From Vicinamibacterales bacterium (lineage in GTDB: Bacteria > Acidobacteriota > Vicinamibacteria > Vicinamibacterales > UBA2999), in assembly GCA_035646375.1 (NCBI GenBank), contig DASRPM010000104.1:4025-68024 (forward strand): a DNA stretch of 64,000 nucleotides. Reading direction: 5' to 3'. The position numbers and the translations under genes were made by a program. Under the pieces are notes generated by a model. That model was not told where the DNA came from, did not search any database, and was given only the letters and a program-made list of their open reading frames with translations. Within the stretch, counting starts at the first letter, position 1. Each line of letters begins with the position of its first letter. Positions 4,058-47,832 of the stretch are shown here, one piece after another.

Positions 4058-4732
4058 TTACATCTTTTCCTTCAGCACCTTGATCCACGGCTCGGCCGCC
4101 GCCGTGGGCTCGACCTTGCGCTCCACGACGACGTTCTTCGTGCTGTAGCCGACGCCGTAGATCTTCTCGTTGGCGTCGCGGTCGGCGCGGATGGTCGAGC
4201 CCGCCAGGCTGACGCCGGCGAACAGGCCGCGCGAGCGCGAGTAGCTGAGGATCTGCGCCTGCAGCTTGTAGTCGGTGGACGCCGTCGCCTCGCGGCCGAC
4301 GGGCCCCGCCGCCACCGATGCGTCGCCGCCGATCTTGAACGTGTTCTGCGCCAGGTTCTCGATGCCGCGCTCGTTCACCACCACCAGCACGATGTCGGTC
4401 GCCTGACCGCCAATCTGGAACCCCAGGCTGCCGCCGGTGAGCGTGACGAATGCTGGCGCCGACCAGCCCGACGCCGACTTGACGCTCATAACCCCTTTGC
4501 CGCGCTGCGCGCCGATGAGCAGGGCGCCCTTGACGGTGGAGGGGATGACCACGATGGCCTTCGCCTGCTCGACGATGGCTTCGGGCACGCCCTTGTCGGG
4601 TGCTGACAGCACCTCCTCGAGCACGCGCGCGGATTCGATCAGGCGATCGGTTTCCACCTGCTGCGCGACGGCGAGTCGCGGCAGCAACGTCAATGTGAGC
4701 ACCGCAAGCGCAACGGCGACCTTGCTCGTCAT
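4058..4732 (-). CDS. Periplasmic SYLF (Ysc84/DUF500) lipid-binding domain protein
   Basis: Start moved to M14, with GGAGG 7 nt upstream. Signal peptide, then GGSLGFQIGGQATDIVLVV, GGDASVAAGPVGREA and SYSRSRGLFAGVSLAG. Confidence 0.85.
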   Translation of the reverse strand: MTSKVAVALAVLTLTLLPRLAVAQQVETDRLIESARVLEEVLSAPDKGVPEAIVEQAKAIVVIPSTVKGALLIGAQRGKGVMSVKSASGWSAPAFVTLTGGSLGFQIGGQATDIVLVVVNERGIENLAQNTFKIGGDASVAAGPVGREATASTDYKLQAQILSYSRSRGLFAGVSLAGSTIRADRDANEKIYGVGYSTKNVVVERKVEPTAAAEPWIKVLKEKM

Positions 4733-4775
4733 CTGGGGGTCCTCCTTGAAGACCCCGAGCGTATCACGCACGAGG

Positions 4776-5669
4776 CTAGCCGATGCCGGCCACCGGCTTG
4801 GTGATGGTCCCGAGGTCGTCGATGCGCGATAGATCCGCGCGCGGGTTGTTGAACCGTTCGCCCGTCTCGATGACGACGCTCGCGTGCAGCAGATCGGTGT
4901 CGCGGATGCGCCGCTTCACCTCGAGGTCGATCTTGTGCGTGCTCAGCGCCGCGGGCTTCTTGGCGCCTGCCAGGTTGGCCAGCACGTCGCTCTCTCGAAT
5001 CGGCAAACCGCACCGCTTCGCGTTCTGGAACAGCCAGTTGAGCGCGATCGGGTTGAGCGAGGGGTTCTCGTTGCCGCCGCCGACGTCCGAGTGCACGCCG
5101 CGGAACCAGACTTCCTGCAGCAGGACGCCGGTGGTCGGTCCGCTGCCCGAAAGCCGTTTGAGCGGAAAGAACAGCCGGCTCTCGTCGAGCGCCATCGCGT
5201 GGAAGACGTTGTGGGCGTTGGGCGGCATGTCCAGGTTGTGACCGGCGTTGACGTGCTCGCCGGGCAGCCCGAACTCGCCGACGACGTCGAACAGCCCGAT
5301 GAAGCGCACGTTCTGGTCCTTCATCTTGCTGGCGATCTCGTTGGCAAACGACAGCGCCAGCGCGGCGCCGCGGCTGAAGCCCGCGATGTCCACCACCGCG
5401 TCACCCGCTTCGATGTTGTTCTCGAGCCGCTCCATCGCCTGGCGCACGCGCTGGTGTCCGCCGATGCCAAAGGCTTCCGAGAACGTCCGGCCGATGAACG
5501 TGCGCGCCCGCCTGCCGATGCCCTTCAGGTACAGGCTGCCGATCTCCTTGCCGGGATCGTCGTTCTTGTTGGGATCCTCGTACGCGTTGAAGAACTTGCA
5601 GGCGTTCGAGTCGCGATTGTCGCCGTCACGATCTTCCTGGCCGGTGCCGTCGAAAACATAGAGCGCCAT
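4776..5669 (-). CDS. Minimal DUF2235 / Tle1-like alpha/beta hydrolase (298 aa)
   Basis: Start at MALYVFDGTGQ. GFSRGA nucleophile motif, VWFRGVHSDVGGG; no signal peptide. Confidence 0.75.
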   Translation of the reverse strand: MALYVFDGTGQEDRDGDNRDSNACKFFNAYEDPNKNDDPGKEIGSLYLKGIGRRARTFIGRTFSEAFGIGGHQRVRQAMERLENNIEAGDAVVDIAGFSRGAALALSFANEIASKMKDQNVRFIGLFDVVGEFGLPGEHVNAGHNLDMPPNAHNVFHAMALDESRLFFPLKRLSGSGPTTGVLLQEVWFRGVHSDVGGGNENPSLNPIALNWLFQNAKRCGLPIRESDVLANLAGAKKPAALSTHKIDLEVKRRIRDTDLLHASVVIETGERFNNPRADLSRIDDLGTITKPVAGIG

Positions 5670-35194: not shown

Positions 35195-35649
35195 GCGCTC
35201 TCTCCCGTCGCCGTCGCCGCCGTGGCCAGCCGCGCCTGCATCCGGATCCAGGCGCCCGCCATCATCGCCGGCCCCGTCGTCAGCACCAGCAGTGCGCGGA
35301 TCCAGAAGGGCAGCACCACGTACTCGCCCATCGTGAACCCGTACACCAACGAGCACGTCTCGGCTGCCGCGGCAATGCCTGCGAACATCAGCTCGCGCGC
35401 GCGGGCGATCTTCGCCGCCAGGTAGCCCGCCAGCAGCGCCACCATCACGTTGGCGATCGCCTTGACGGCAAGAATCGACGGGCGGTTGAGCGCCGCGAGA
35501 TACGACGCCATGTCCTTCACGGCGTCGCCGCCCGCCGCGCTCACCAGCGTGTATTCGAGGAGCTGCGAGACGGCCGAGAAGAGCACGAGCGCGCCCAGGA
35601 TGCCGGTGATGCCCCGGGCCAGATCGACCGGCTCGGCCTGCCCGGTCAC
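35191..35649 (-). CDS. Hypothetical 4-TM membrane protein (152 aa)
   Basis: GTG start in a GTGA overlap with the rhomboid stop; hydrophobic throughout. Confidence 0.55.
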   Translation of the reverse strand: MTGQAEPVDLARGITGILGALVLFSAVSQLLEYTLVSAAGGDAVKDMASYLAALNRPSILAVKAIANVMVALLAGYLAAKIARARELMFAGIAAAAETCSLVYGFTMGEYVVLPFWIRALLVLTTGPAMMAGAWIRMQARLATAATATGESA

Positions 35650-36485
35650 GAGAGGACCGCGATGATCGCCGCGACGATCTGCGGCATGATCGACACCATC
35701 GACGCCAGCAGGCACACCATCGCGGTGAAGATGTGATCGATGCGCTCCGGTTTGAGCGGATCGAGCAGGCGTCCCGCGAAGTAGCCGCCCGCGAAGCCGC
35801 CGATGTGCGCCGAGTTGTCCACGCCGGACATGATGAAGCCCATCGCGCCGGCCGTCAGCGCATACGACCACGCCTGGCTGCTGGCCGCGCGGCTGCCGCT
35901 GCGGCGGCCGTAATAGACCACGGCGCCCAGCAGGCCGAAGATGGCCGCCGACGCGCCCACCGTGTACGACGCGCCGAAGAAGGGCAACCCTGGCAGGAAA
36001 AAGCCGATGGTGGAGCTGAGAAGGAATCCCGACACCGAACTGACCGTGTAGATGATGACGGTGCGGCCGGGGCCGTAGAGGTCCGCGGTGGCGGGCACCA
36101 GCTGCCGCACCCACATCATGTTGAAGACGATGTGCAGGATGTTGCCGTGCAGCCAGCCGGCGCTCAGCAGCGTCAGCCAGCGCCCCTGGATGAACACCGG
36201 TACGGCGCCGCTGTTGCCGAGATAGTTGAGCACTGGACCCGAGGGTGACAGCATGCCGCCGAACGACCCGCCGGAAATCGCCAGCGACAGCACGTAGATG
36301 ACGCCGCAGGCACCGACGATGAAGGGCATGAAGCCGACGTCGTGTCCGAGCGCGCGCAGCGCCGGCGCCCAGCCCCAGAGGCCTGGATTGCGGCGGCCGC
36401 AGTTGTAACAGGTGGCGTCGTTGACGGCTACGAGCACCCCGCACGAGGTGCAGAGGACCGACCCGCTTCGCTGACGTTTCAGCAC
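35646..36485 (-). CDS. Rhomboid-family intramembrane serine protease with an N-terminal zinc ribbon
   Basis: CTSCG...CYNCG; WLHGNILHIVFNMMW; GASAAIFGL; HIGGFAGG. Confidence 0.85.
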   Translation of the reverse strand: MLKRQRSGSVLCTSCGVLVAVNDATCYNCGRRNPGLWGWAPALRALGHDVGFMPFIVGACGVIYVLSLAISGGSFGGMLSPSGPVLNYLGNSGAVPVFIQGRWLTLLSAGWLHGNILHIVFNMMWVRQLVPATADLYGPGRTVIIYTVSSVSGFLLSSTIGFFLPGLPFFGASYTVGASAAIFGLLGAVVYYGRRSGSRAASSQAWSYALTAGAMGFIMSGVDNSAHIGGFAGGYFAGRLLDPLKPERIDHIFTAMVCLLASMVSIMPQIVAAIIAVLS

Positions 36486-36551
36486 GTGGTCGATGATAGC
36501 CTGTTACCAGCGCTCAATTGCCCGCCCTGCGGGCGGGCGAGCCGCCTATCC

Positions 36552-37130
36552 ATGCGCCTGATCGTTGCCCTCAGCGGAGCCACCGGTTCGATCTACGGCA
36601 TCCGCCTCCTCGAATATCTGCGCGACGCCGGTGTTGAAACCCACGCCGTGATCAGCCGCTGGGGCGTGCGCACGCTGCTGCACGAGACCAGCTACTCGAA
36701 GGAGCATGTTGAGGCGCTGGCCACGAAGGCCTACGCGCCGGGCGACATGGGCGCGGCGATTTCGAGCGGCTCGTTCAAGACCGACGGCATGATCGTGGCG
36801 CCGTGCAGCGCCAAGACGCTGGCGGCGATTGCGCACGGCGTCGGCGACAACCTGATTCACCGCGCGGCCGATGTCGTCCTGAAGGAGCGCCGCAAGCTGG
36901 TACTGGCCGTTCGCGAAGCGCCGCTGAGCGACATCCACCTCGAAAACATGCTGCGGCTGTCGCGGATGGGGGCGGTGGTGCTGCCGCCGGTGCCGGCGTT
37001 CTACACGAAGCCGCAGACGCTCGACGACGTGGTGAACCACACCGTGGCGCGGCTGCTCGATCAGTTCGGCATCGACGCGCCCGGCATGGCGCGGTGGAAC
37101 GGCGAGATGGGGACCGGCGGCGAAGACTGA
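36552..37130 (+). CDS. ubiX: Flavin prenyltransferase UbiX
   Basis: MRLIVALSGATGSIYGIRLL, MIVAPCSAKTLAAIAHG, VLKERRKLVL. Confidence 0.9.
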   Translation: MRLIVALSGATGSIYGIRLLEYLRDAGVETHAVISRWGVRTLLHETSYSKEHVEALATKAYAPGDMGAAISSGSFKTDGMIVAPCSAKTLAAIAHGVGDNLIHRAADVVLKERRKLVLAVREAPLSDIHLENMLRLSRMGAVVLPPVPAFYTKPQTLDDVVNHTVARLLDQFGIDAPGMARWNGEMGTGGED

Positions 37131-37145: not shown

Positions 37146-38078
37146 TCAGGCTTCTTCCAATTGCTCACGCGCTTTCTCGACAGCGCGCTCGGCGTCTTCC
37201 ACCACCTGCGCGGCGTCGGCCGCCTCCGATGCGGTCTTGCGCGCGGCCTGTCGCGCCGCCTCGGCGGACCCGGTGGCCTTTTCGAGCCGCGTCTCGAGAT
37301 CCTTCTTGTCCTTCTCGACGCCTTTGAGCGTGGCCGCCGCCTTCTTCAGCGCGGCCTCCGCCGTCGCGGCGTCGCGTCTGGCCTCCGCCAGCGTCCGCTC
37401 CGCGGCCTTGAGCGCCGCCTGTGCCGCCTTGCGGCGCTCCGCATCGCGGGCCTTGGCATCGGCGGGGCTCACGGCCTTCTGCCTGCCCTTGCCGTTGGCC
37501 GTCGGACGCTTGTTGGCGTGAAACGCGAGCACGCGGGCGTCGCCGGCCGGACGTGCCGGGTTGTCGCCGGGGCCTCGCGGCGCCAGGGCCGAAATCGTCT
37601 CGAACCCGGGAGGGTCGACGTCCGCCGTCAGGCGGCCCGCCACGGGCGCGCCTTCGAGCAGCCCCTGCGCCGCGAGCCCCTCGAGGGTCATCGTCACGCG
37701 GCGCATCACGTCCGGGCTCGGCTGGTGACCCGATTCCGACAGGAGGGCGGACGCCTGGCGCGACAGCTCGCCGAGCGTCTCGCGCTGGGTGTTGAGCAGC
37801 TCGCGCAGGTTGGTGGCGTGGCCGGCCAGCTGCGAGGCCTGCGCCTGCCGGAGACGCGCGCCGCCTGTCAGCAGCCGGTCGAACGCCTCCCGATTCCGCC
37901 AGTAGAGCAGATTGACCACCCACGCCGACACGGGCGGCTTGGTGAGCGTCTTCACCCGGGCTGCGGCGTCCTTGTCCCCGGCTTTCTGCAGCCGCGACGC
38001 GAGCGCGTTCCGGGCCGCCGTGAACTCGGGCAGCGGCAGCTGAAACAGCCCGTCTACCTCGGAATTCTTCGTCGCCAC
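37146..38078 (-). CDS. Hypothetical protein with an N-terminal helical domain and an Ala/Lys/Glu-rich coiled-coil C-terminus
   Basis: Coherent ORF; LFQLPLPEFTAARNALASRLQKAGDKDAAARVKTL... Family not recognised. Confidence 0.55.
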   Translation of the reverse strand: MATKNSEVDGLFQLPLPEFTAARNALASRLQKAGDKDAAARVKTLTKPPVSAWVVNLLYWRNREAFDRLLTGGARLRQAQASQLAGHATNLRELLNTQRETLGELSRQASALLSESGHQPSPDVMRRVTMTLEGLAAQGLLEGAPVAGRLTADVDPPGFETISALAPRGPGDNPARPAGDARVLAFHANKRPTANGKGRQKAVSPADAKARDAERRKAAQAALKAAERTLAEARRDAATAEAALKKAAATLKGVEKDKKDLETRLEKATGSAEAARQAARKTASEAADAAQVVEDAERAVEKAREQLEEA

Positions 38079-38226
38079 GAGTGACCTAGTCTGTCACACC
38101 CCCTTCGTAGACTGTCGTTACGGGGCACCGCCCCGGGCATCCAAACAACGGCAGCCGGCCAGACCCGCCCCGCGGTTGCGGGGCAAAGAGACCAGCGTGG
38201 CCGGCAAATCGACGGAGGAGACGGTC

Positions 38227-38613
38227 ATGGCCCAGGTTGAGGCGCTTCAGCAGACGGATTCGGAACAGCAGCTCGCGTTGCAGGGCCTCCGGTGGCCGGC
38301 GCGGCGTCCCGCCGTGCGGGCGTTCGTCGAGGCTCCCGGCCGGCACGCGCCGATGTGCGCGGGGTGCCGCGCGAAGGAAGCGCGCTACGGGTTCCGGGCC
38401 GAAGGCACCGAGGCCGACGGCACGGAGCGTCCGCGGACCCTCTGCTTCGACTGCTTCCGCATCGAGATCGATCGCCGCCGGCGGGCGGCCGAGCAGCTGG
38501 CCAGGGGCTGGAACGCGGCGCAGGTGGGCTTGCCGCTCGAGGACACGCTGAACGAGCTGTCGCGCCGCCGCCGCCGCGCGCAGATCGCCGCCCGCCACGC
38601 ACTCGGGTTGTAG
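38227..38613 (+). CDS. Small Cys4 zinc-ribbon protein with an Arg-rich C-terminal helix
   Basis: Start moved to MAQVEAL, with GGAGGAG 6 nt upstream. CAGC...(32 aa)...CFDC. Confidence 0.5.
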   Translation: MAQVEALQQTDSEQQLALQGLRWPARRPAVRAFVEAPGRHAPMCAGCRAKEARYGFRAEGTEADGTERPRTLCFDCFRIEIDRRRRAAEQLARGWNAAQVGLPLEDTLNELSRRRRRAQIAARHALGL

Positions 38614-38615
38614 CC

Positions 38616-38633
38616 GCGGGTCTTTAGACCCGC
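38616..38633. terminator. GCGGGTCTTTAGACCCGC palindromic element, copy 2
   Basis: 8-bp arms between convergent stops at 38613 and 38635. Confidence 0.5.
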
Positions 38634-38634
38634 C

Positions 38635-40032
38635 TCACGGCGCGCCGCGGAACGTTTCCGCCGCGCCGGGAGCCGTGAACTCCAGCGTGCGCCCGGCCGC
38701 GCGGCCGCTCACCGTGTAGCGGCCCTGCAGCTGCAGGAAGTTGACGTCGTTGGCGAGCGGGCCCTGGGCCATGCGCGTGGTCACGGCCGACGTCACGTCG
38801 AACCGCAGGGTGATGTCGAGCGCCGAGCCGAGCGCGCGCACGGTGATGGCCGTCGGGCGGCCGTCGGGTGCGTTGGTCTCCGCGATCTGGACGTTGGTGG
38901 CAAAGCCGAGCGGGCCATCGGGGCCCAGCACGCCCACGAAACCCGGCAGGCGCTCGCGGTCGGCGGCGTCTTCGGGCGGGAACACGCGTCCGTACACCAC
39001 GGACACGCCCTCGTGCTGCGCCTGCCCCCACTGCCACGACACGCCCTTCCAGAATCCCCAGTTGTGGTCGTGGTAGCCGGTGCCGTCGAGCGACAGCGTC
39101 TCTGGCGTGGCGGCCCCCCGCGGCGTCAGCGTCAGCGACCCTGCCAGCGCGCCCGACATCACGGGCACCACGTAGCCGGTGCGCCAGCCCTTCGCGCCGA
39201 GCATCTCGATCGGCGGCACCAGGCGGCCGGGCGAGCCTTCGAGCGACACGTCGCCCACCGCGCGCGTGCCGTCCGGACCCACCAGATCGAGGTGCAGGCG
39301 ATAGCGCTGTCCGTCGAGCCGCACGGTGCTGGCGCCGATCGCCAGGTCCGGCGCGCCCGCCACTTCGGCGTCGGTCAGCAGCGCGCTGGCGTTGTAGTTC
39401 TCGGTGCGGTCGCCGCGCTGCAGCTGCAGGCGCACGCCGGCGGCGCGGCGGCCGTCGGGCGCGCGCGGCCCGACGAGAAACGTCAGGTAGAACCGGGCGT
39501 CGGCGCCGCGCCCGTTGAAATACAGCCACTCCGCCCACGAGTCGGCCCACGCCGGCGCGTCTGGAACCGGATGGAATTTGTCGATCTCGCGCAGCGCCGC
39601 CGCGGGCGAGCTGTGCGTCCACGCGCGGTCCGCCTCGGTGTCCTGCCAGGCGCCGATGGCGCTCGTCTCGTGGTCGCCGAGCGCCCGCTCGAGGCTGGGG
39701 ACGCCGCCGCGGCCCGCCACGCGGATCCGCTTGCCGCCGCTCGTCAGGTACAGGTCCGCGGTCTGCGTGGGTGCCGTGGTGACGATACGGGAGCGCAGCG
39801 CCTCGGCCTGCAGCGTGCCCGACAGCAGCAACGAGGCGGGAATCTGGCGTCCCACGCGGATCACCACGTCGCCGCCGCCGACGAGATCCGGCGACTGCGC
39901 CTGCTGCAGCACGATCTCCGCCACGCCGAGCAGGATCGCCATCACGGCGACGCCGGCGCCAAACCCCACCGACAACACGGCGCTGCGCACCGGGTGCGCG
40001 GTGAGCGAGCGCAGCGCGAGCCGGCTGATCAC
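38635..40032 (-). CDS. Single-TM protein: an FtsX/MacB-type N-terminal TM1 and periplasmic segment fused to an AttH/CrtC-like lipocalin domain
   Basis: GTG start in a GTGA overlap. LALRSLTAHPVRSAVLSVGFGAGVAVM (permease TM1 signature). AEWLYFNGRG...FYLTFLVG and GYHDHNWG (AttH/CrtC-like). Confidence 0.65.
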   Translation of the reverse strand: MISRLALRSLTAHPVRSAVLSVGFGAGVAVMAILLGVAEIVLQQAQSPDLVGGGDVVIRVGRQIPASLLLSGTLQAEALRSRIVTTAPTQTADLYLTSGGKRIRVAGRGGVPSLERALGDHETSAIGAWQDTEADRAWTHSSPAAALREIDKFHPVPDAPAWADSWAEWLYFNGRGADARFYLTFLVGPRAPDGRRAAGVRLQLQRGDRTENYNASALLTDAEVAGAPDLAIGASTVRLDGQRYRLHLDLVGPDGTRAVGDVSLEGSPGRLVPPIEMLGAKGWRTGYVVPVMSGALAGSLTLTPRGAATPETLSLDGTGYHDHNWGFWKGVSWQWGQAQHEGVSVVYGRVFPPEDAADRERLPGFVGVLGPDGPLGFATNVQIAETNAPDGRPTAITVRALGSALDITLRFDVTSAVTTRMAQGPLANDVNFLQLQGRYTVSGRAAGRTLEFTAPGAAETFRGAP

Positions 40033-40721
40033 CGGGTGGCCTCGCTGTCGATGCGGCCGTCGCGCATCGTCAACACCCGCCGCGCGCGGCTGGCGAGCGC
40101 GTGATCGTGCGTGACGATCACCATCGCGGTGCCGTCGGCGTTCACGCGGTCGAGCAGCGCGGCGATGTGCTCGCCGGTGGCCTGGTCCAGTTCGCCCGTG
40201 GGCTCGTCCGCCAGCAGCAGGCGGGGGCGGTTGGCGAGCGCGCGGGCAATCGCCACGCGCTGCATCTCGCCGCCGGAGAGCTGCGACGGGCGGTGGTCGG
40301 CCCGGTGCGCCAGCCCCACGTAGTCGAGCAGGTCGCGGGTGCGCTGCCGCCGCTCGGCGGTGGCCACGCCGGCCTCCGACAGCGGCAGCTCCACGTTCTC
40401 GGCCGCGCTCAGCATCGGCAACAGGAAAAAGCGCTGGAAGACGAACCCGATCGAGCGGAGCCGCAGCAGGCTGCGCTGCCGATCCGACAGCGTGGCCACG
40501 TCCTCACCTTCGAACAGCAGCGTGCCGCCGCTCGGCGTGTCCACGCAGCCGAGCATGTGGAGCAGCGTGGACTTGCCGCAGCCCGACGGCCCGCGCACGG
40601 CGATGTGGTCGCCCGGGGTGATGTCGAGCGACACGTCCTGGACGGCCGTGACCGGGCCGGCCGGCATCGTGAACAGGCGGCTCACGTGCGACGCCGAGAT
40701 GATCAAGCCAGCGCCGCTCAT
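40029..40721 (-). CDS. ABC transporter ATP-binding protein (LolD/MacB/FtsE type)
   Basis: Start at MSGAGLII. GPSGCGKSTLL, LSGGEMQRVAIARAL, LLLADEPTGELD. Confidence 0.9.
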   Translation of the reverse strand: MSGAGLIISASHVSRLFTMPAGPVTAVQDVSLDITPGDHIAVRGPSGCGKSTLLHMLGCVDTPSGGTLLFEGEDVATLSDRQRSLLRLRSIGFVFQRFFLLPMLSAAENVELPLSEAGVATAERRQRTRDLLDYVGLAHRADHRPSQLSGGEMQRVAIARALANRPRLLLADEPTGELDQATGEHIAALLDRVNADGTAMVIVTHDHALASRARRVLTMRDGRIDSEATR

Positions 40722-40731
40722 GCCCGCACTC

Positions 40732-41907
40732 TCACGAGAGCACCTCGGCGCGGAGCGTCGCGGCAATCGGCAGGCGCGCCACGACCTGCATCGGGTACAG
40801 GGCGGCCGCCAGCGCCGTCAGCGCCAGCAGCCCGGCATGCAGGCCGAGCGTGGCCGGTTCCAGCACGAAGAAATTCATCTGGCCCGGAATGCCGGGCATC
40901 GTCTTGAGGATGCCGTCGAGCCCGCGGGCGAGCGCCGCGCCGAGCGGCAGCGAGACCAGGCCGCCGAGTCCCACGATGAGGATCGACTCGCACAGCACGT
41001 CGGCCACCACGCGCCGGCGCGAGAACCCCAGCGCGCGCAGCGCCGCAATCTCGCCCAGCCGTTGATTGACCGACACCGTCAGCAGCACCGTGATCAGGAG
41101 CAGCGCGAAGCCCACCGTGACGGCGGAGAGCACTGCCGAGATCTGGCGGAAGTAGGTGAAGCCGTTGCGCTGCAGCCGGCCGAGCACCTGCTCGTTGGTG
41201 GCCACGTTGAGCCGCGGCTGGGCGGCGCGCACCGCGGCCGCCGTGGCGTCCACTTCACCGAGCGCGCTGGCCAGGATGATGTCGGCCTCGTCCGTGCGGC
41301 TGGCGCAGGCCGCGTCGAGCGTCGGCATGGCGGCGCCGGCCGTGGGATCGCCCACGAGCTCGAAGGGGAATTCGGCGATGCCCACGACGCGCAGGCGCGC
41401 CGGCGGCAGCACCTGGTTGGACGCCGCGCAGCGGGCGCGCACGGTGAGCGCACCGCCCGGTTCCAGCCGCAGTGCATCGGCGAGGGCGCGGCTCACCACG
41501 ACTTCTCCATCGCCGGCAGGATCGCGGCCGGCCAGCACGGTCCATGGGCGCGCGTCGCCCTGCACGCCCTCGAGCGTCATGGCCATCGGGCCGGCGGGCC
41601 CATCGGTCTCGGCCTCGACGAAACGGATGGCGAGCACCGTGCCCAGCTGTGGCAGCCGGCGAAGCGCCGCCAGCGTGGCGTCGGTGTCGTGCATGCGGTC
41701 GCCCGCGCGGCGCAGATCGCCGGAGGCCGTGATCCGGATGTCGAATCCGGTCCGCTCCAGCATGTCGCGCATCGACACGACCAGGCCGTCCGACAGCATC
41801 AGCATGTCGAACAGCAGCGCCCCGACGGCCGCCACTCCGAGTACGCCGAGCAGCGCGCGCGCCGGCTGGCGCACCAGGCTTCGCCACGCGAACCGGAGCG
41901 CGATCAT
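40732..41907 (-). CDS. FtsX-family ABC permease (canonical four-TM, large periplasmic domain)
   Basis: Start at MIALRFAWRSLVRQPARALL in an ATGA overlap. C-terminal FtsX region LGEIAALRALGFSRRRV. Confidence 0.85.
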   Translation of the reverse strand: MIALRFAWRSLVRQPARALLGVLGVAAVGALLFDMLMLSDGLVVSMRDMLERTGFDIRITASGDLRRAGDRMHDTDATLAALRRLPQLGTVLAIRFVEAETDGPAGPMAMTLEGVQGDARPWTVLAGRDPAGDGEVVVSRALADALRLEPGGALTVRARCAASNQVLPPARLRVVGIAEFPFELVGDPTAGAAMPTLDAACASRTDEADIILASALGEVDATAAAVRAAQPRLNVATNEQVLGRLQRNGFTYFRQISAVLSAVTVGFALLLITVLLTVSVNQRLGEIAALRALGFSRRRVVADVLCESILIVGLGGLVSLPLGAALARGLDGILKTMPGIPGQMNFFVLEPATLGLHAGLLALTALAAALYPMQVVARLPIAATLRAEVLS

Positions 41908-42752
41908 CGCCGCGCCAGCCGCAGCGCGTTGCGCCGCAGAAGGAGCCACGACGCCACGACCGTGGCCGAGACGCCGAGCGGGATGGCGATCAGCACGCAG
42001 GTCACCGCGACCGACGGCGTCACCTGCACGAAGAGCAGCGCGGTGTCGTAGCGCCACTGGAAGAAACGGTTGATCACCCCCTCGGACACGACCGCCAGGG
42101 CGAGTCCGAACGCCGACCCGACACTCGCCACCAGCACCCCTTCGAGCAGCACCTGCGCCAGCACACGGCTCGTGGGCAGCCCGATCAGGCGCAGCACGCC
42201 GACAGTCTCGCGGCGTTCGTCCACGAGCATCACGGTGAGCGCGATCAGGAACACGGTGGACGCGAGGATGGTGACGATGGCGATGGCGAGGTGAAAGCGT
42301 TCGAGCACGCGGAACGGGCCCGCCGCCGCGCCGGCATCAGTGGTTGGCCGCGCCGACAGGCCCGGGAGCCGGGCGTTCACGTCGCGCGAGAACGCCAGCG
42401 CGTCGGTGCCCGGCGTCAACCGGACGTTGATGGCGTCCACCGACTCGGCGCCCTTCGGTGCGTCCGGCGGGGTCGTCAGCGCCAGGAGATCCGGGAGGTG
42501 CAGCCGCACCGCGTGGATCGCGTTGCCGAGCCGCGACGGATCCGGTGTGGGCTCGTAGATGCCGGCCACGCGGAAGTCCCGCGCCCGCGATCCATCGGGC
42601 GGCGCCACCTGCACGACCGCACCGATCGAGAGGCCCAATGCCTCGGCCGCCTGCCGCGACACGAGCACGGTGGGAAGTTCCGATGTCTGCGCCACCGCGG
42701 CAGCCGGCAGCCCCGCCAGGATGGCGAGGATCGCGAGGACGGCGAGCCTCAA
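41904..42752 (-). CDS. Short FtsX-family permease whose N-terminus looks like a signal peptide rather than a canonical TM1
   Basis: TTG start in a TTGA overlap with the EVE stop (alternative GTG at 42779). MRLAVLAILAILAGLPAAAVAQ; C-terminal VGVLRLIGLPTSRV FtsX region. Confidence 0.7.
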   Translation of the reverse strand: MRLAVLAILAILAGLPAAAVAQTSELPTVLVSRQAAEALGLSIGAVVQVAPPDGSRARDFRVAGIYEPTPDPSRLGNAIHAVRLHLPDLLALTTPPDAPKGAESVDAINVRLTPGTDALAFSRDVNARLPGLSARPTTDAGAAAGPFRVLERFHLAIAIVTILASTVFLIALTVMLVDERRETVGVLRLIGLPTSRVLAQVLLEGVLVASVGSAFGLALAVVSEGVINRFFQWRYDTALLFVQVTPSVAVTCVLIAIPLGVSATVVASWLLLRRNALRLARR

Positions 42753-43153
42753 CGGCTCATCTTCTCGATGCGGTGCCACTCGGCATCGGTCACCGGCATG
42801 ACCGAGAGCCTGGGCATGCGGGTGAGGGGGAAGGACGCGAACGCCGGCACTGCCTTGATCTGGGCGAGCGTCACGGGGCGCGCGAGCGCCGCCACGGGGA
42901 CGATGTCCACCACGTACGCCTTGCCGGTCGCGTCGGCGGGATCGGGGTAGGCGTCGGTGGCCGCGCTGGCGATGGCCACGACGGCCTTCTCCTTGCCCGT
43001 GTGGTAGTAGAAGACCCGATCGCCGCGGCGCATGGACCGCAGGTGCTTCTGGGCGAGCGGATTCTTCACCCCCGCCCACACGGTCTTGCCGTCACGCTCC
43101 AGTTGGGCGTAGCCGTAGTGGTCGGGCTCCTCTTTGACCAGCCACTGCGCCAT
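42749..43153 (-). CDS. EVE (PUA-like) domain protein
   Basis: MAQWLVKEEPDHY...WAGVKNPLAQKHLRSMRRGDRVFYYHTG...AYPDP. Confidence 0.85.
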   Translation of the reverse strand: MAQWLVKEEPDHYGYAQLERDGKTVWAGVKNPLAQKHLRSMRRGDRVFYYHTGKEKAVVAIASAATDAYPDPADATGKAYVVDIVPVAALARPVTLAQIKAVPAFASFPLTRMPRLSVMPVTDAEWHRIEKMSR

Positions 43154-43335
43154 GGCTGGATTATATCGGCGAGCCGTTTACCAGTTGCTGCCGCAACCCC
43201 GCGCGTCCCGCGGCGCAGAATCTGCGCCGCTCCGAGGTCGGCCCTTTGGTTGCCGTGCTGGTCGGGCCGGAGCGCCATGTGCAGCCACCGCGGTTGAGCA
43301 CGCCGTCCGGCGGCGCTATGCTCAAGGAGGTTGCG

Positions 43336-43644
43336 ATGGCGACGCTCGAGGAACGGGTAGCGTACCTGGAAGGGCAAGTGAGCGAGCACACTCATACGCT
43401 GATCGACATCCGCGATTCGATCCGACAGCTCGACCGGCGATTCGACGCGCGACTCGACACCATCGATCGGCGCATCGACGGGCTCGAAGACAAGCTCGAT
43501 CGGCGCATCGATGGGCTCGAAGACAAGCTCGGTCGCCGCATCGAAGGGCTCGAGGACAAGCTTGCGCGGCAGTTCGCGTGGCTCGTCGGTATCCAGGTGA
43601 CCACGCTCGTCGCCATCGTGGGCGCGCTTGTGACGCGCTCGTGA
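43336..43644 (+). CDS. Small C-terminally TM-anchored coiled-coil protein with 11-residue repeats
   Basis: AAGGAGG 5 nt upstream of the ATG. DRRFDARLDTI / DRRIDGLEDKL x2 / GRRIEGLEDKL, then the TM helix FAWLVGIQVTTLVAIVGALV. Confidence 0.7.
   Translation: MATLEERVAYLEGQVSEHTHTLIDIRDSIRQLDRRFDARLDTIDRRIDGLEDKLDRRIDGLEDKLGRRIEGLEDKLARQFAWLVGIQVTTLVAIVGALVTRS
43432..43563 (+). repeat. Four tandem 33-bp units (the last three near-identical) inside the CDS
   Basis: gatcggcgcatcgacgggctcgaagacaagctc repeated at 43465, 43498 and 43531. Confidence 0.85.
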
Positions 43645-43645
43645 T

Positions 43646-45288
43646 GTGACAGGCATCACGCTCGGCTCGTTCCTCTTCGATCAGCTCTGGGCACGCGGCG
43701 TCCGCCACATCTTCGGCATTCCCGGCGACTTCGTCCTCAACCTCTACGAGGCGCTCGAGCGCGACGGCCGCTTCGGCCTGGTGCGCCTGAGCCACGAGCC
43801 GGCGGTCGGCTTCGCCGCCGACGGCTCGGCGCGGATCACGGGCGGCCTCGGCGTGTGCTGCGTCACCTACGGGGCCGGCGGCCTCAACATGGTGAATTCG
43901 GTCGCCTGCGCCTACGCCGAGGAGTCGCCGCTCGTGGTGCTCTCCGGCGGCCCCGGCCGCATCGAGAAGCGGGCCGGCCTGCCCGTCCACCACGAGGTGA
44001 AGTCGTTCGAGTCGCAGCTGCGCGTCTACGCGGAGGTTACCGAGTACAGCGCCATCCTCGACGATCCGCGCACCGCGGCGGCGCACATCGCCCGGGCCCT
44101 CGACGTGGCGGTGAAGCTGAAGCGCCCCGTGTACCTCGAGATCCCGCGCGACATGGTGGACGCCCCGATCGACGGCCCCGCCCCGGACGCGGCGCTCGAA
44201 CTGAACACCGACGAGGGCGCCGTGACCGAAGCGGTGGCCGAGATCACCGAGCGGCTGTCGGCGGCCGAGCGGCCCGTGCTCATCGTCGGCGTCGAAGTGC
44301 ACCGCTTTCAGCTGCGCGATCAGGTGGTGCGCCTCGCGGAGCGGATGGGCGTGCCGGTGGCGTCCTCGTTCCTGGGCCGCGGCGTCTTTCCGAGCCGGCA
44401 CCTCCAGTTCGCCGGCACCTACCTCGGCGTGGTGTCGCCCCAGCCGCTGCGCGACATCGTCGAGAACTCCGATTGCGTGCTGCTCCTCGGCGAGCTGATC
44501 AGCGACACCAGCCTCGGCGTGTCGGCGCAGCGCCTCGACGAGCGCAACCTGATCATCTGTGTCGCCCGCGAGGTGTTCGTCGGCTATCACCGCTATCAAG
44601 ACACTCCGCTCGAGCGCATCGTCGCCGGGCTGCTCGAGTCGCCCGCGCTCGGGTCGTGGCCACCGCACGCGCCGGCGGTGCCGGTCCCGATGTCGGGGGG
44701 CACGGAGCCGCGCTCGGCCGACAGCGCGCCGATGACGGCGGCGCGTCTCATCGAGGCGGCCAACGAATTCGTGGAAGCACATCCGGACGTGCCGCTCGTG
44801 TCGGATACGGGCGACTGTCTCTTTGCAGCGGTGGAAATCCAGTCGAACGACTGCGTGGCTCCGGCATACTACGCGACGATGGGCTTCGCCGTTCCCGCCG
44901 CGCTCGGCCTGCAGGTGTCGAGCGGCCGCCGGCCGCTGGTGCTCGTGGGCGACGGGGCCTTTCAGATGACCGGCTCGGAAATTGCGCACGCGACGCCGCT
45001 CGGCTGCAATCCGATCGTCGTGCTCCTCAACAACAACCGCTGGGAGATGCTGCAGGCGTTCTATCCGCACGCCCGCTACAACGAGACGGTGCCGTGGCCG
45101 TTTGCCCGGCTGGCGGAGCTGTGGGGCGGGCGCGGCGTCGTCGCCGGCACCATCGGCGAGCTCCGCGCGGCGCTGCGCGAGGCGTGGCAGGCGCCCGTGT
45201 TCACGCTCATCGAGGTACCGCTCGCCAAGGGCGACATCTCGCCGGTCTTGAGCCGCTTCGTGAAAGCGTTCAAGGAGCGGGTCTACCG

Positions 45289-45292
<4 letters not shown>
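43646..45292 (+). CDS. Thiamine-diphosphate-dependent alpha-keto-acid decarboxylase (indolepyruvate/phenylpyruvate decarboxylase family)
   Basis: GVRHIFGIPGDFVL, CCVTYGAGGLNMVN, GDGAFQMTGSEI...LNNNRWEM. Confidence 0.8.

Positions 45293-47832
<2,540 letters not shown>

Follow-up and report, generated by a model that had tools for sequence, protein, structure and literature searches.

The DNA analysed here is a 64,000-nt stretch (hereafter the window) of contig DASRPM010000104.1 from a Vicinamibacterales bacterium, with a GC content of about 70% and one protein 100% identical to a Vicinamibacterales (Acidobacteriota) metagenome-assembled genome. In the window, five minus-strand genes follow each other almost without gaps, encoding a stand-alone EVE-domain protein and the putative components of an ATP-binding cassette (ABC) machine with FtsX-type permeases. 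The latter are referred to as P2 (the short FtsX permease), P3 (the full-length permease), P4 (the ABC ATPase) and P5 (a protein of 465 aa). Genes and predicted parts, with TM standing for transmembrane segment, are listed below.

42749..43153, minus strand: EVE, 134 aa, stand-alone EVE-domain protein, the operon's first gene in this genome
41904..42752, minus strand: P2, 282 aa, short FtsX permease, putative C-terminal fragment of a split MacB/FtsX-type permease
42690..42752, minus strand: P2 residues 1-21, Sec-type signal-peptide-like N-terminus
42309..42686, minus strand: P2 residues 23-148, periplasmic piece corresponding to ~55% of the MacB periplasmic core domain, at its C-terminal end
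40732..41907, minus strand: P3, 391 aa, full-length 4-TM FtsX/MacB-type permease
40029..40721, minus strand: P4, 230 aa, LolD/MacB/FtsE-type ABC ATPase
38635..40032, minus strand: P5, 465 aa, putative permease N-fragment plus AttH-like barrel
39694..40032, minus strand: P5 residues 1-113, amphipathic N-helix, long TM1 (14-46) and first third of the periplasmic core domain
39538..39693, minus strand: P5 residues 114-165, helical connector with a conserved D151-R-F-H154 motif (from modelled secondary structure and conservation)
38635..39537, minus strand: P5 residues 166-465 and stop codon, AttH-like double beta-barrel

The preliminary description of this locus had reported five minus-strand genes joined by a TTGA overlap, an ATGA overlap, a 10-nt gap and a GTGA overlap, and all of these were read in the sequence. 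At the EVE/P2 junction (...agccgTTGAggc) the P2 start codon, TTG at 42752, overlaps the EVE TGA; a second possible in-frame start for P2 is a GTG at 42779. P2 and P3 share a 4-nt overlap (gcgATGAtcg), the TGA of P3 and the ATG of P4 are separated by 10 nt (gagtgcgggc), and P4 and P5 again share a 4-nt overlap (ccgGTGAtca). The operon is flanked by a divergent plus-strand gene (43246-43644) and by a convergent plus-strand ORF (38176-38613). Overlaps of four bases are ordinary within operons; what goes beyond chance is not the overlaps as such, it is that overlaps and gene order are kept across about 65 loci (see below).

A type VII ABC system works by mechanotransmission, an ATP-driven conformational change in the periplasm that carries nothing across the membrane, and is recognized by a LolD/MacB/FtsE-type nucleotide-binding subunit encoded alongside a permease with a C-terminal FtsX 3-TM domain (PF02687), preceded in the same chain by TM1 and the MacB periplasmic core domain (MacB_PCD). 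By its domain matches, P4 is predicted to be such a subunit: it matched ABC_tran (E 3.1e-33) in Pfam, and its best NCBIfam matches were LolD (222 bits), the MacB nucleotide-binding domain (216 bits) and FtsE, the two scores given being lower than the respective equivalog cut-offs. Likewise, the FtsX domain is predicted in both P2 (residues 156-275, E 3.6e-13) and P3 (residues 259-380, E 1.9e-12), and the best PDB sequence match of P3 was LolE. Hydropathy analysis gave one TM-like segment in P5 (15-46), four in P3, and three in P2 in addition to a short N-terminal hydrophobic stretch. The complete order of TM1, MacB_PCD and TM2-4 is found in a single chain in P3, is not found in P2 alone, and is found in P5 (1-113) and P2 jointly.

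Pairwise BLASTP among P2, P3 and P5 was significant for TM2-3 of P2 and P3 only and could not judge the short N-terminal similarity, so that profiles were needed. Local profile-profile comparison (hhalign), with alignments from 80 genome loci, aligned residues 1-113 of P5 with residues 2-118 of P3 (probability 92%, E 5.8e-7) and residues 25-282 of P2 with residues 132-387 of P3 (probability 99.7%, E 7.6e-26), with no match between the P5 N-terminus and P2. The MacB_PCD model (PF12704, 207 positions) was covered by the P5 family from position 1 to ~80-114 (13 of 33 members, best E 2.2e-5), by the P2 family from ~108/121 to 206, followed by FtsX, and by the P3 orthologues over positions 1-206 (seven out of ten). 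A profile joining the N-terminal part of P5 (P5N) to P2 was also searched against the PDB; the search was swamped by proteins with GGGGS linkers and only the match to Acinetobacter baumannii MacB (5GKO) was informative, covering TM1 (279-319) and then 453-654, in the correct order. With the P5-family profile, a single weak TM1 match was retrieved among PDB sequences (5XU1, E 2.2).

Since the hhalign alignments and the MacB_PCD coverage tile, P5 and P2 appear complementary: by homology they would make up a full permease, nearly without gap or overlap, the predicted break falling within the periplasmic domain, after roughly its first third, and not directly after TM1. The homology first proposed between the N-termini of P5 and of the canonical permease is borne out by these comparisons, whereas the idea of two complementary pieces of one permease holds with a correction of the cut, which gives P5 TM1 plus the initial third of the periplasmic domain, and P2 the rest with TM2-4.

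If the short hydrophobic stretch at the P2 N-terminus were an uncleaved TM1, P2 could be a self-sufficient small FtsX-type permease, with P5 as an extra single-pass accessory protein whose permease similarity would be an evolutionary relic. Such an explanation might draw on the hydropathy profile, with its four hydrophobic segments in total, and on FtsX itself, which has a small extracellular domain (~125 aa); moreover, cleavage of the P2 signal peptide is a prediction from sequence. Nonetheless, we consider it unlikely. The periplasmic part of P2 aligns with the second half of the MacB core only, and that of P5 with the first half only. In place of the TM1 signature, whose lack in P2 had been noticed from the start, the protein begins in the window with M-R, a 13-residue h-region (LAVLAILAILAGL) and then P-A-A-A-V-A|Q, with a helix-breaking proline at position -6 and small residues at -3/-1, and thus looks like a textbook n-h-c signal peptide with a signal-peptidase-type c-region. 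Among close relatives this N-terminus varies in sequence and length, with a conserved A-x-A-Q at its end, and across phyla it is a short hydrophobic stretch directly followed by a conserved (I/V)L(V/I)SRQLAE motif. It is the least conserved part of P2 (mean column conservation 0.27), whereas the true TM1 regions rank with the best conserved parts of their proteins, at 0.64 for P5 and 0.61 for P3. Positive charges follow TM2 in P2 and also occur at its C-terminus, and in P5 they precede TM1, a distribution that fits a P5 with its N-terminus inside and an exported P2 N-terminus; a P2 fragment starting in the periplasm would need just such a signal for export if it is to adopt the FtsX topology.

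Modelling of P2 alone with AlphaFold2 (AF2) did not yield a normal 4-TM FtsX protein, in line with the preliminary description. The model was poor (predicted local distance difference test, pLDDT, 65.4; predicted TM-score, pTM, 0.40) and contained three long TM helices, with an N-terminal helix limited to 12 residues (2-13) and with residues 14-24 at pLDDT<50. Its best fold matches were LolC/LolE, MacB, HrtB and FtsX, all with low TM-scores; the match with FtsX structures would also suit a self-sufficient P2, and the 12-residue helix argues against it.

As for P5, the family comprised 2,933 word-index matches, and 591 representatives at 50% identity. Full-length members are 455-510 aa long and their layout is unchanged down to ~30% identity; an unsplit form, with TM1, barrel and TM2-4 in one chain, was not found among the P5 relatives listed, the longest of which has 576 aa. 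In the N-terminal part, at least 90% of members keep R8, P14, R16, G23, L34, L35, Q44 and G53-G54-D55. The AF2 model of P5, obtained with 33 diverse homologues, was of good quality (pLDDT 87.9, pTM 0.79) and shows an amphipathic helix (2-12), a 33-residue TM1 (14-46), a small alpha/beta piece (66-118), connector helices that reach residue 165 and a large all-beta domain (166-462), mostly at pLDDT >90. Residues 44-60 are of low confidence and, in this model, mark where the missing partner strands would lie.

Foldseek searches of the PDB with the P5 model retrieved the Diels-Alderases Fsa2, Phm7 and CghA (from E 2e-12), the putative AttH NE1406 (2ICH, E 5e-11, TMt 0.55-0.57), and also kievitone hydratase and 25-phosphosteroid lyase; the set of AttH-fold structures (7E22, 7E5T, 2ICH, 6KBC, 7A0T, 9FZN) matched with probability 1.00 and E 2e-12 to 6e-8. 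On these model-based matches, the C-terminal domain of P5 is assigned to the AttH-like fold of SCOP, made of two orthogonally packed lipocalin-like barrels. At sequence level, neither CrtC (PF07143) nor Lipocalin_9 (PF17186) matched P5 of the window (E<=10) or any of the 33 members (E<=1), and relatives of P5 gave weak Pfam matches to Tocopherol_cycl, around GYHDHNWG, and to DUF7064/7065, DUF2804, AsqO_C and DA_N. The P5 barrel is therefore best placed, by sequence and model, in a distinct, unnamed family within the AttH-like fold. Accordingly, of the AttH/CrtC-like domain proposed in the preliminary description, the fold was recovered and the CrtC/Lipocalin_9 membership was not; the lack of further TM helices after TM1 and the presence of AEWLYFNG and GYHDHNWG were both found as described, the two motifs being nearly invariant in the family.

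The near-invariant family motifs are WAEWxYFN, GYHDHNWGxW and WxWGQ, and the (near-)invariant residues include D151, H154, W166, E168, W169, Y171, N173, Y182, Y244, Y287, Y320-H-D-H-N-W-G326, W333, W335, Q434 and E459. The number of polar and aromatic residues kept (nearly) invariant is more suggestive of an active site than of a passive carrier. The Y-x-D within YHDHNWG resembles what we take to be the essential Tyr/Asp pair of CrtC, a likeness that we presume useful as a lead only.

The genome scan identified at least 381 loci, in species-level genomes, encoding a relative of P5, 80 of which were fetched. They derive from Vicinamibacterales, other Acidobacteriota, Gemmatimonadota, Eisenbacteria and Krumholzibacteriia. 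The order P2-P3-P4-P5 was found in every locus with enough upstream DNA (~65 loci), most junctions being 4-nt overlaps, and protein lengths recur as well (P2 ~270-300 aa, P5 ~455-510 aa). The P2 family in particular is conserved and consistently of ~280 aa. In databases, the proteins of the module are annotated as "hypothetical protein" or "ABC transporter permease".

The gene order first suggested for this locus, EVE-FtsX-FtsX-ABC-AttH, is thus conserved in its last four genes, and EVE was found upstream in only five of the ~65 informative loci. The EVE protein itself matched PF01878 over profile positions 2-145 of 145 (E 2.7e-38) and PDB entry 2GBS (Rpa0253, E 1.6e-32), as an ordinary stand-alone bacterial EVE. 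It might be a functional component of the module, a reader of modified nucleic acids that regulates the transporter or works with it, as the TTGA overlap with P2 in the window, its position directly upstream in the five loci (L003-L007), the 4-nt overlaps in L003 and L005, and the conservation of EVE where the genes beyond it are not conserved could suggest. However, these five loci are all closest relatives (phmmer and a purpose-built HMM search), and EVE is missing from the other ~60, among them L008, in which the genes downstream (zinc-finger-like ORF, coiled-coil protein, UbiX and rhomboid) are syntenic. In L004 a fatty-acid desaturase gene (4151-5233, plus strand, PF00487, E 6e-34) separates EVE from P2, and elsewhere the upstream gene is an unrelated one, such as a K+ channel, an ankyrin protein or an exonuclease. 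Moreover, EVE is cytoplasmic, whereas the machine works in the periplasm, and a broad survey of EVE contexts makes no mention of ABC transporters, FtsX or permeases (PMC7641849). With upstream occurrence in five of ~65 loci, unrelated neighbours in the others and a survey silent on permeases, EVE is a lineage-specific passenger of a small Vicinamibacterales subclade, lying outside the machine, although it may be co-transcribed with the module in this lineage; its role as a meaningful novel component, suggested at first, is very improbable. Finally, that the short permease and the TM1 fusion stem from a frameshift, a pseudogene or a mis-assembly can be dismissed, since, even though the window belongs to a metagenome-assembled genome, the P2 family, the gene order, the junctions and the lengths recur in ~65 independent genomes of several phyla, and each protein has thousands of database homologues.

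We propose, with a probability of about 0.7, that P2-P5 constitute a four-gene Att-like type VII (MacB/FtsX-fold) ABC machine in which one permease half is formed by P5N and P2, with EVE outside of it. By analogy with related systems, the machine probably handles a membrane lipid. Its architecture is well supported by gene order, junctions, homology tiling, fold, the signal-peptide-like P2 N-terminus and cross-phylum conservation. To this architecture we add, as what we infer, the physical assembly of P5 with P2, the cleavage of the signal peptide, lipid extraction, the kind of substrate, the chemistry and the role of the barrel, in the following terms. P4, probably as a dimer, would power a pseudo-heterodimeric membrane part, P3 / (P5N+P2). 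From P5 would come the N-helix on the cytoplasmic side, TM1 and the opening third of the periplasmic domain; P2, exported via its own, probably cleaved, signal peptide, would supply the remaining periplasmic domain and TM2-4, so that P3, P5N and P2 together would restore the usual 8-TM architecture. Because the P5 chain continues into the AttH-like double beta-barrel, the barrel would be held on the TM1 stalk by a covalent link, at the point where the periplasmic domain is broken and where an insertion into that domain would sit. There it would receive a hydrophobic membrane molecule, binding it or perhaps chemically converting it, the latter being considered because of the many invariant polar and aromatic residues.

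Some points weigh against this proposal. The P5-family matches to MacB_PCD stayed below the gathering score (best 25.3 bits vs 27), and P5 of the window alone had no Pfam match, even at E<=10, and none in NCBIfam. The MacB/FtsX match predicted for the N-terminus of the 465-aa protein was thus found by family and profile comparison and not for the single protein; the link between P5 and MacB is, judging from these searches, visible at the family/profile level only. The predicted signal peptide of P2 could stay in place as a membrane anchor, and the alignment used for the AF2 model of P2 was shallow (at least 64% identity), which may partly explain the poor model. Furthermore, clustering of the flanking ORFs brought out no further gene conserved beside the module across phyla, and no hint of the substrate.

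A bolder extension of the split-permease machine, conceivable although doubtful, is that the barrel is a hydratase/cyclase/lyase-type enzyme gated mechanically by the ABC motor, and that, through the direct attachment of the barrel to the TM1 stalk, each ATP cycle would extract a membrane isoprenoid or lipid and also open or close the active site. If true, motor and enzyme would be covalently coupled into a "mechano-enzyme", which could serve as a tractable model for the Att-type substrate, including that of the M. tuberculosis virulence locus Rv0986-0988. As to the split layout itself, it predicts the position of the partner protein, at the break in the periplasmic domain and on the TM1 stalk, and with it a route by which force would reach the partner. 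The module is widespread in abundant and poorly studied soil phyla. For annotation purposes, it would be wrong to treat the short permease as a truncated gene or to keep P5 among the hypothetical proteins.

Around the module, clusters of flanking ORFs reflected synteny at the lineage level only, namely that of MntH and DtxR among Gemmatimonadaceae, and that of UbiX and rhomboid among close Vicinamibacterales. In the Gemmatimonadaceae loci (L039-L080), the genes upstream of P2 include, in 16-19 cases, those for an NRAMP/MntH-type transporter, a DtxR/MntR-type regulator and a universal-stress-like protein, which is probably lineage synteny and not a functional link. In three Gemmatimonadaceae loci, the genes for the ATPase and the P5 homologue are separated by an additional conserved plus-strand ORF of ~200 aa (...RWPLSTLVAYLFDGRECDEVRELL...FDYGPWADVYVATLTPAEA...; L052:4656-5261, L067:7336-8001 and L077:7333-8001). 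The desaturase of L004 is the sole lipid-related neighbour seen beside the module. One P4-P5 pair (L072, JBOGGX010000157.1) is located on a 3.3-kb contig binned with Acidimicrobiales (Actinomycetota), a monoderm lineage; a mis-binned contig is more likely than a true occurrence.

In the window, the plus-strand gene at 43246-43644 codes for a protein of 132 aa with a coiled-coil segment in which DRRIDGLEDKL is repeated, a hydrophobic helix at the C-terminus and weak Pfam matches to XhlA and apolipoprotein-like families; no homologue was found beside the module in related loci. On the other side are a plus-strand ORF of 145 aa (38176-38613) with a CxxC...CxxC-like motif and no Pfam match, a minus-strand gene (37146-38078) for an Ala/Glu-rich coiled-coil protein of 310 aa, UbiX (36342-37130) and rhomboid (35646-36485). 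These four are syntenic 3' of the module in L001, L002, L004, L007 and L008, all closest Vicinamibacterales. Further away and not related to the module, reading of the translations suggested, on the plus strand, a thiamine-diphosphate-dependent decarboxylase-like gene (43646-45292) and, after it, a Ser/Thr kinase whose C-terminal region is long and TPR-like (~45300-47832). One further element lies between the stop codons of P5 and of the convergent ORF:

38616..38633, no strand assigned: GC-rich hairpin, perfect 7-bp stem GCGGGTC-TAAA-GACCCGC, no T-tract

This hairpin may be a bidirectional terminator of a kind common in high-GC genomes. The terminator scan of the window did not call it, promoter and terminator scans gave nothing useful in DNA of ~70% GC, and Rfam and tRNA scans of the entire window gave no matches.

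When compared with known systems, the combination of FtsX permeases, an ATPase and an AttH-like protein parallels, as had been suggested, the attE-H operon of Agrobacterium and the Rv0986-0988 operon of M. tuberculosis, which encode an ATPase, two permease modules and AttH (PMC3982062), and the gene content matches. AttH-like proteins have been linked to LolD-type ABC systems, with a suspected role in lipid or isoprenoid handling (PMC2954199). The module and the Att systems each combine, in a single operon, an AttH-fold protein with a LolD-like ATPase and two FtsX-type modules. As to the differences, both permease modules are complete in the Att systems (AttF and AttG, or fused as Rv0987), whereas here one is split within the periplasmic domain, its N-fragment is fused to the barrel and the gene order is permease, permease, ATPase, barrel. 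Moreover, AttH is there a separate exported protein of ~320-390 aa (2ICH being a stand-alone chain of 320-323 residues), and P5 has no match to the AttH Pfam models PF07143 and PF17186.

With LolCDE, the module shares a LolD-type ATPase and would share a heterodimer of paralogous 4-TM FtsX-fold permeases, and LolE, LolC and LolD are its best PDB/NCBIfam matches. LolCDE passes lipoproteins to LolA, the lipidic substrate being taken from the outer leaflet and delivered to a beta-barrel acceptor docked on one periplasmic domain. Here, on the contrary, the acceptor-like domain would be covalently tethered, is AttH-like and not LolA-like, and takes the place of a part of one permease chain. Identity with a Lol system was rejected on scores, with 222 bits against a cut-off of 307.75 for LolD, and 24.1 (P2) and 18 (P3) bits against 362.45 for lolCE.

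Type VII ABC transporters serve a periplasmic partner by extracting hydrophobic molecules for it, and work in the periplasm by mechanotransmission via the TM1/TM2 stalk helices, the partner protein defining the function; among them, YbbAP of E. coli is proposed to lift hydrophobic compounds out of the inner membrane for TesA (PMC12646458). YbbAP-TesA is alike in pairing a type VII machine with a periplasmic lipid-processing partner. It differs in that YbbP is a single large permease and TesA a separate SGNH hydrolase bound non-covalently, in place of a fused AttH-fold barrel. The double beta-barrel is shared with the AttH-fold enzymes (Fsa2/Phm7/CghA, kievitone hydratase, CrtC, tocopherol cyclase and 25-phosphosteroid lyase), all of which act on hydrophobic terpenoid, polyketide or steroid substrates; their identity to P5 is 10-16% and none is membrane-anchored via an ABC-permease fragment. 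To our knowledge, all type VII machines described so far (MacB, LolCDE, FtsEX, YbbAP) have intact 4-TM permease units and non-covalent partners, and no published description of a split permease with its partner fused to the N-fragment was found in the searchable literature. With its split permease and a partner fused to the N-fragment, the present layout departs from every described type VII system, and it might offer a simpler model, with the partner linked covalently, for the class of the Att and Rv0986-0988 systems.

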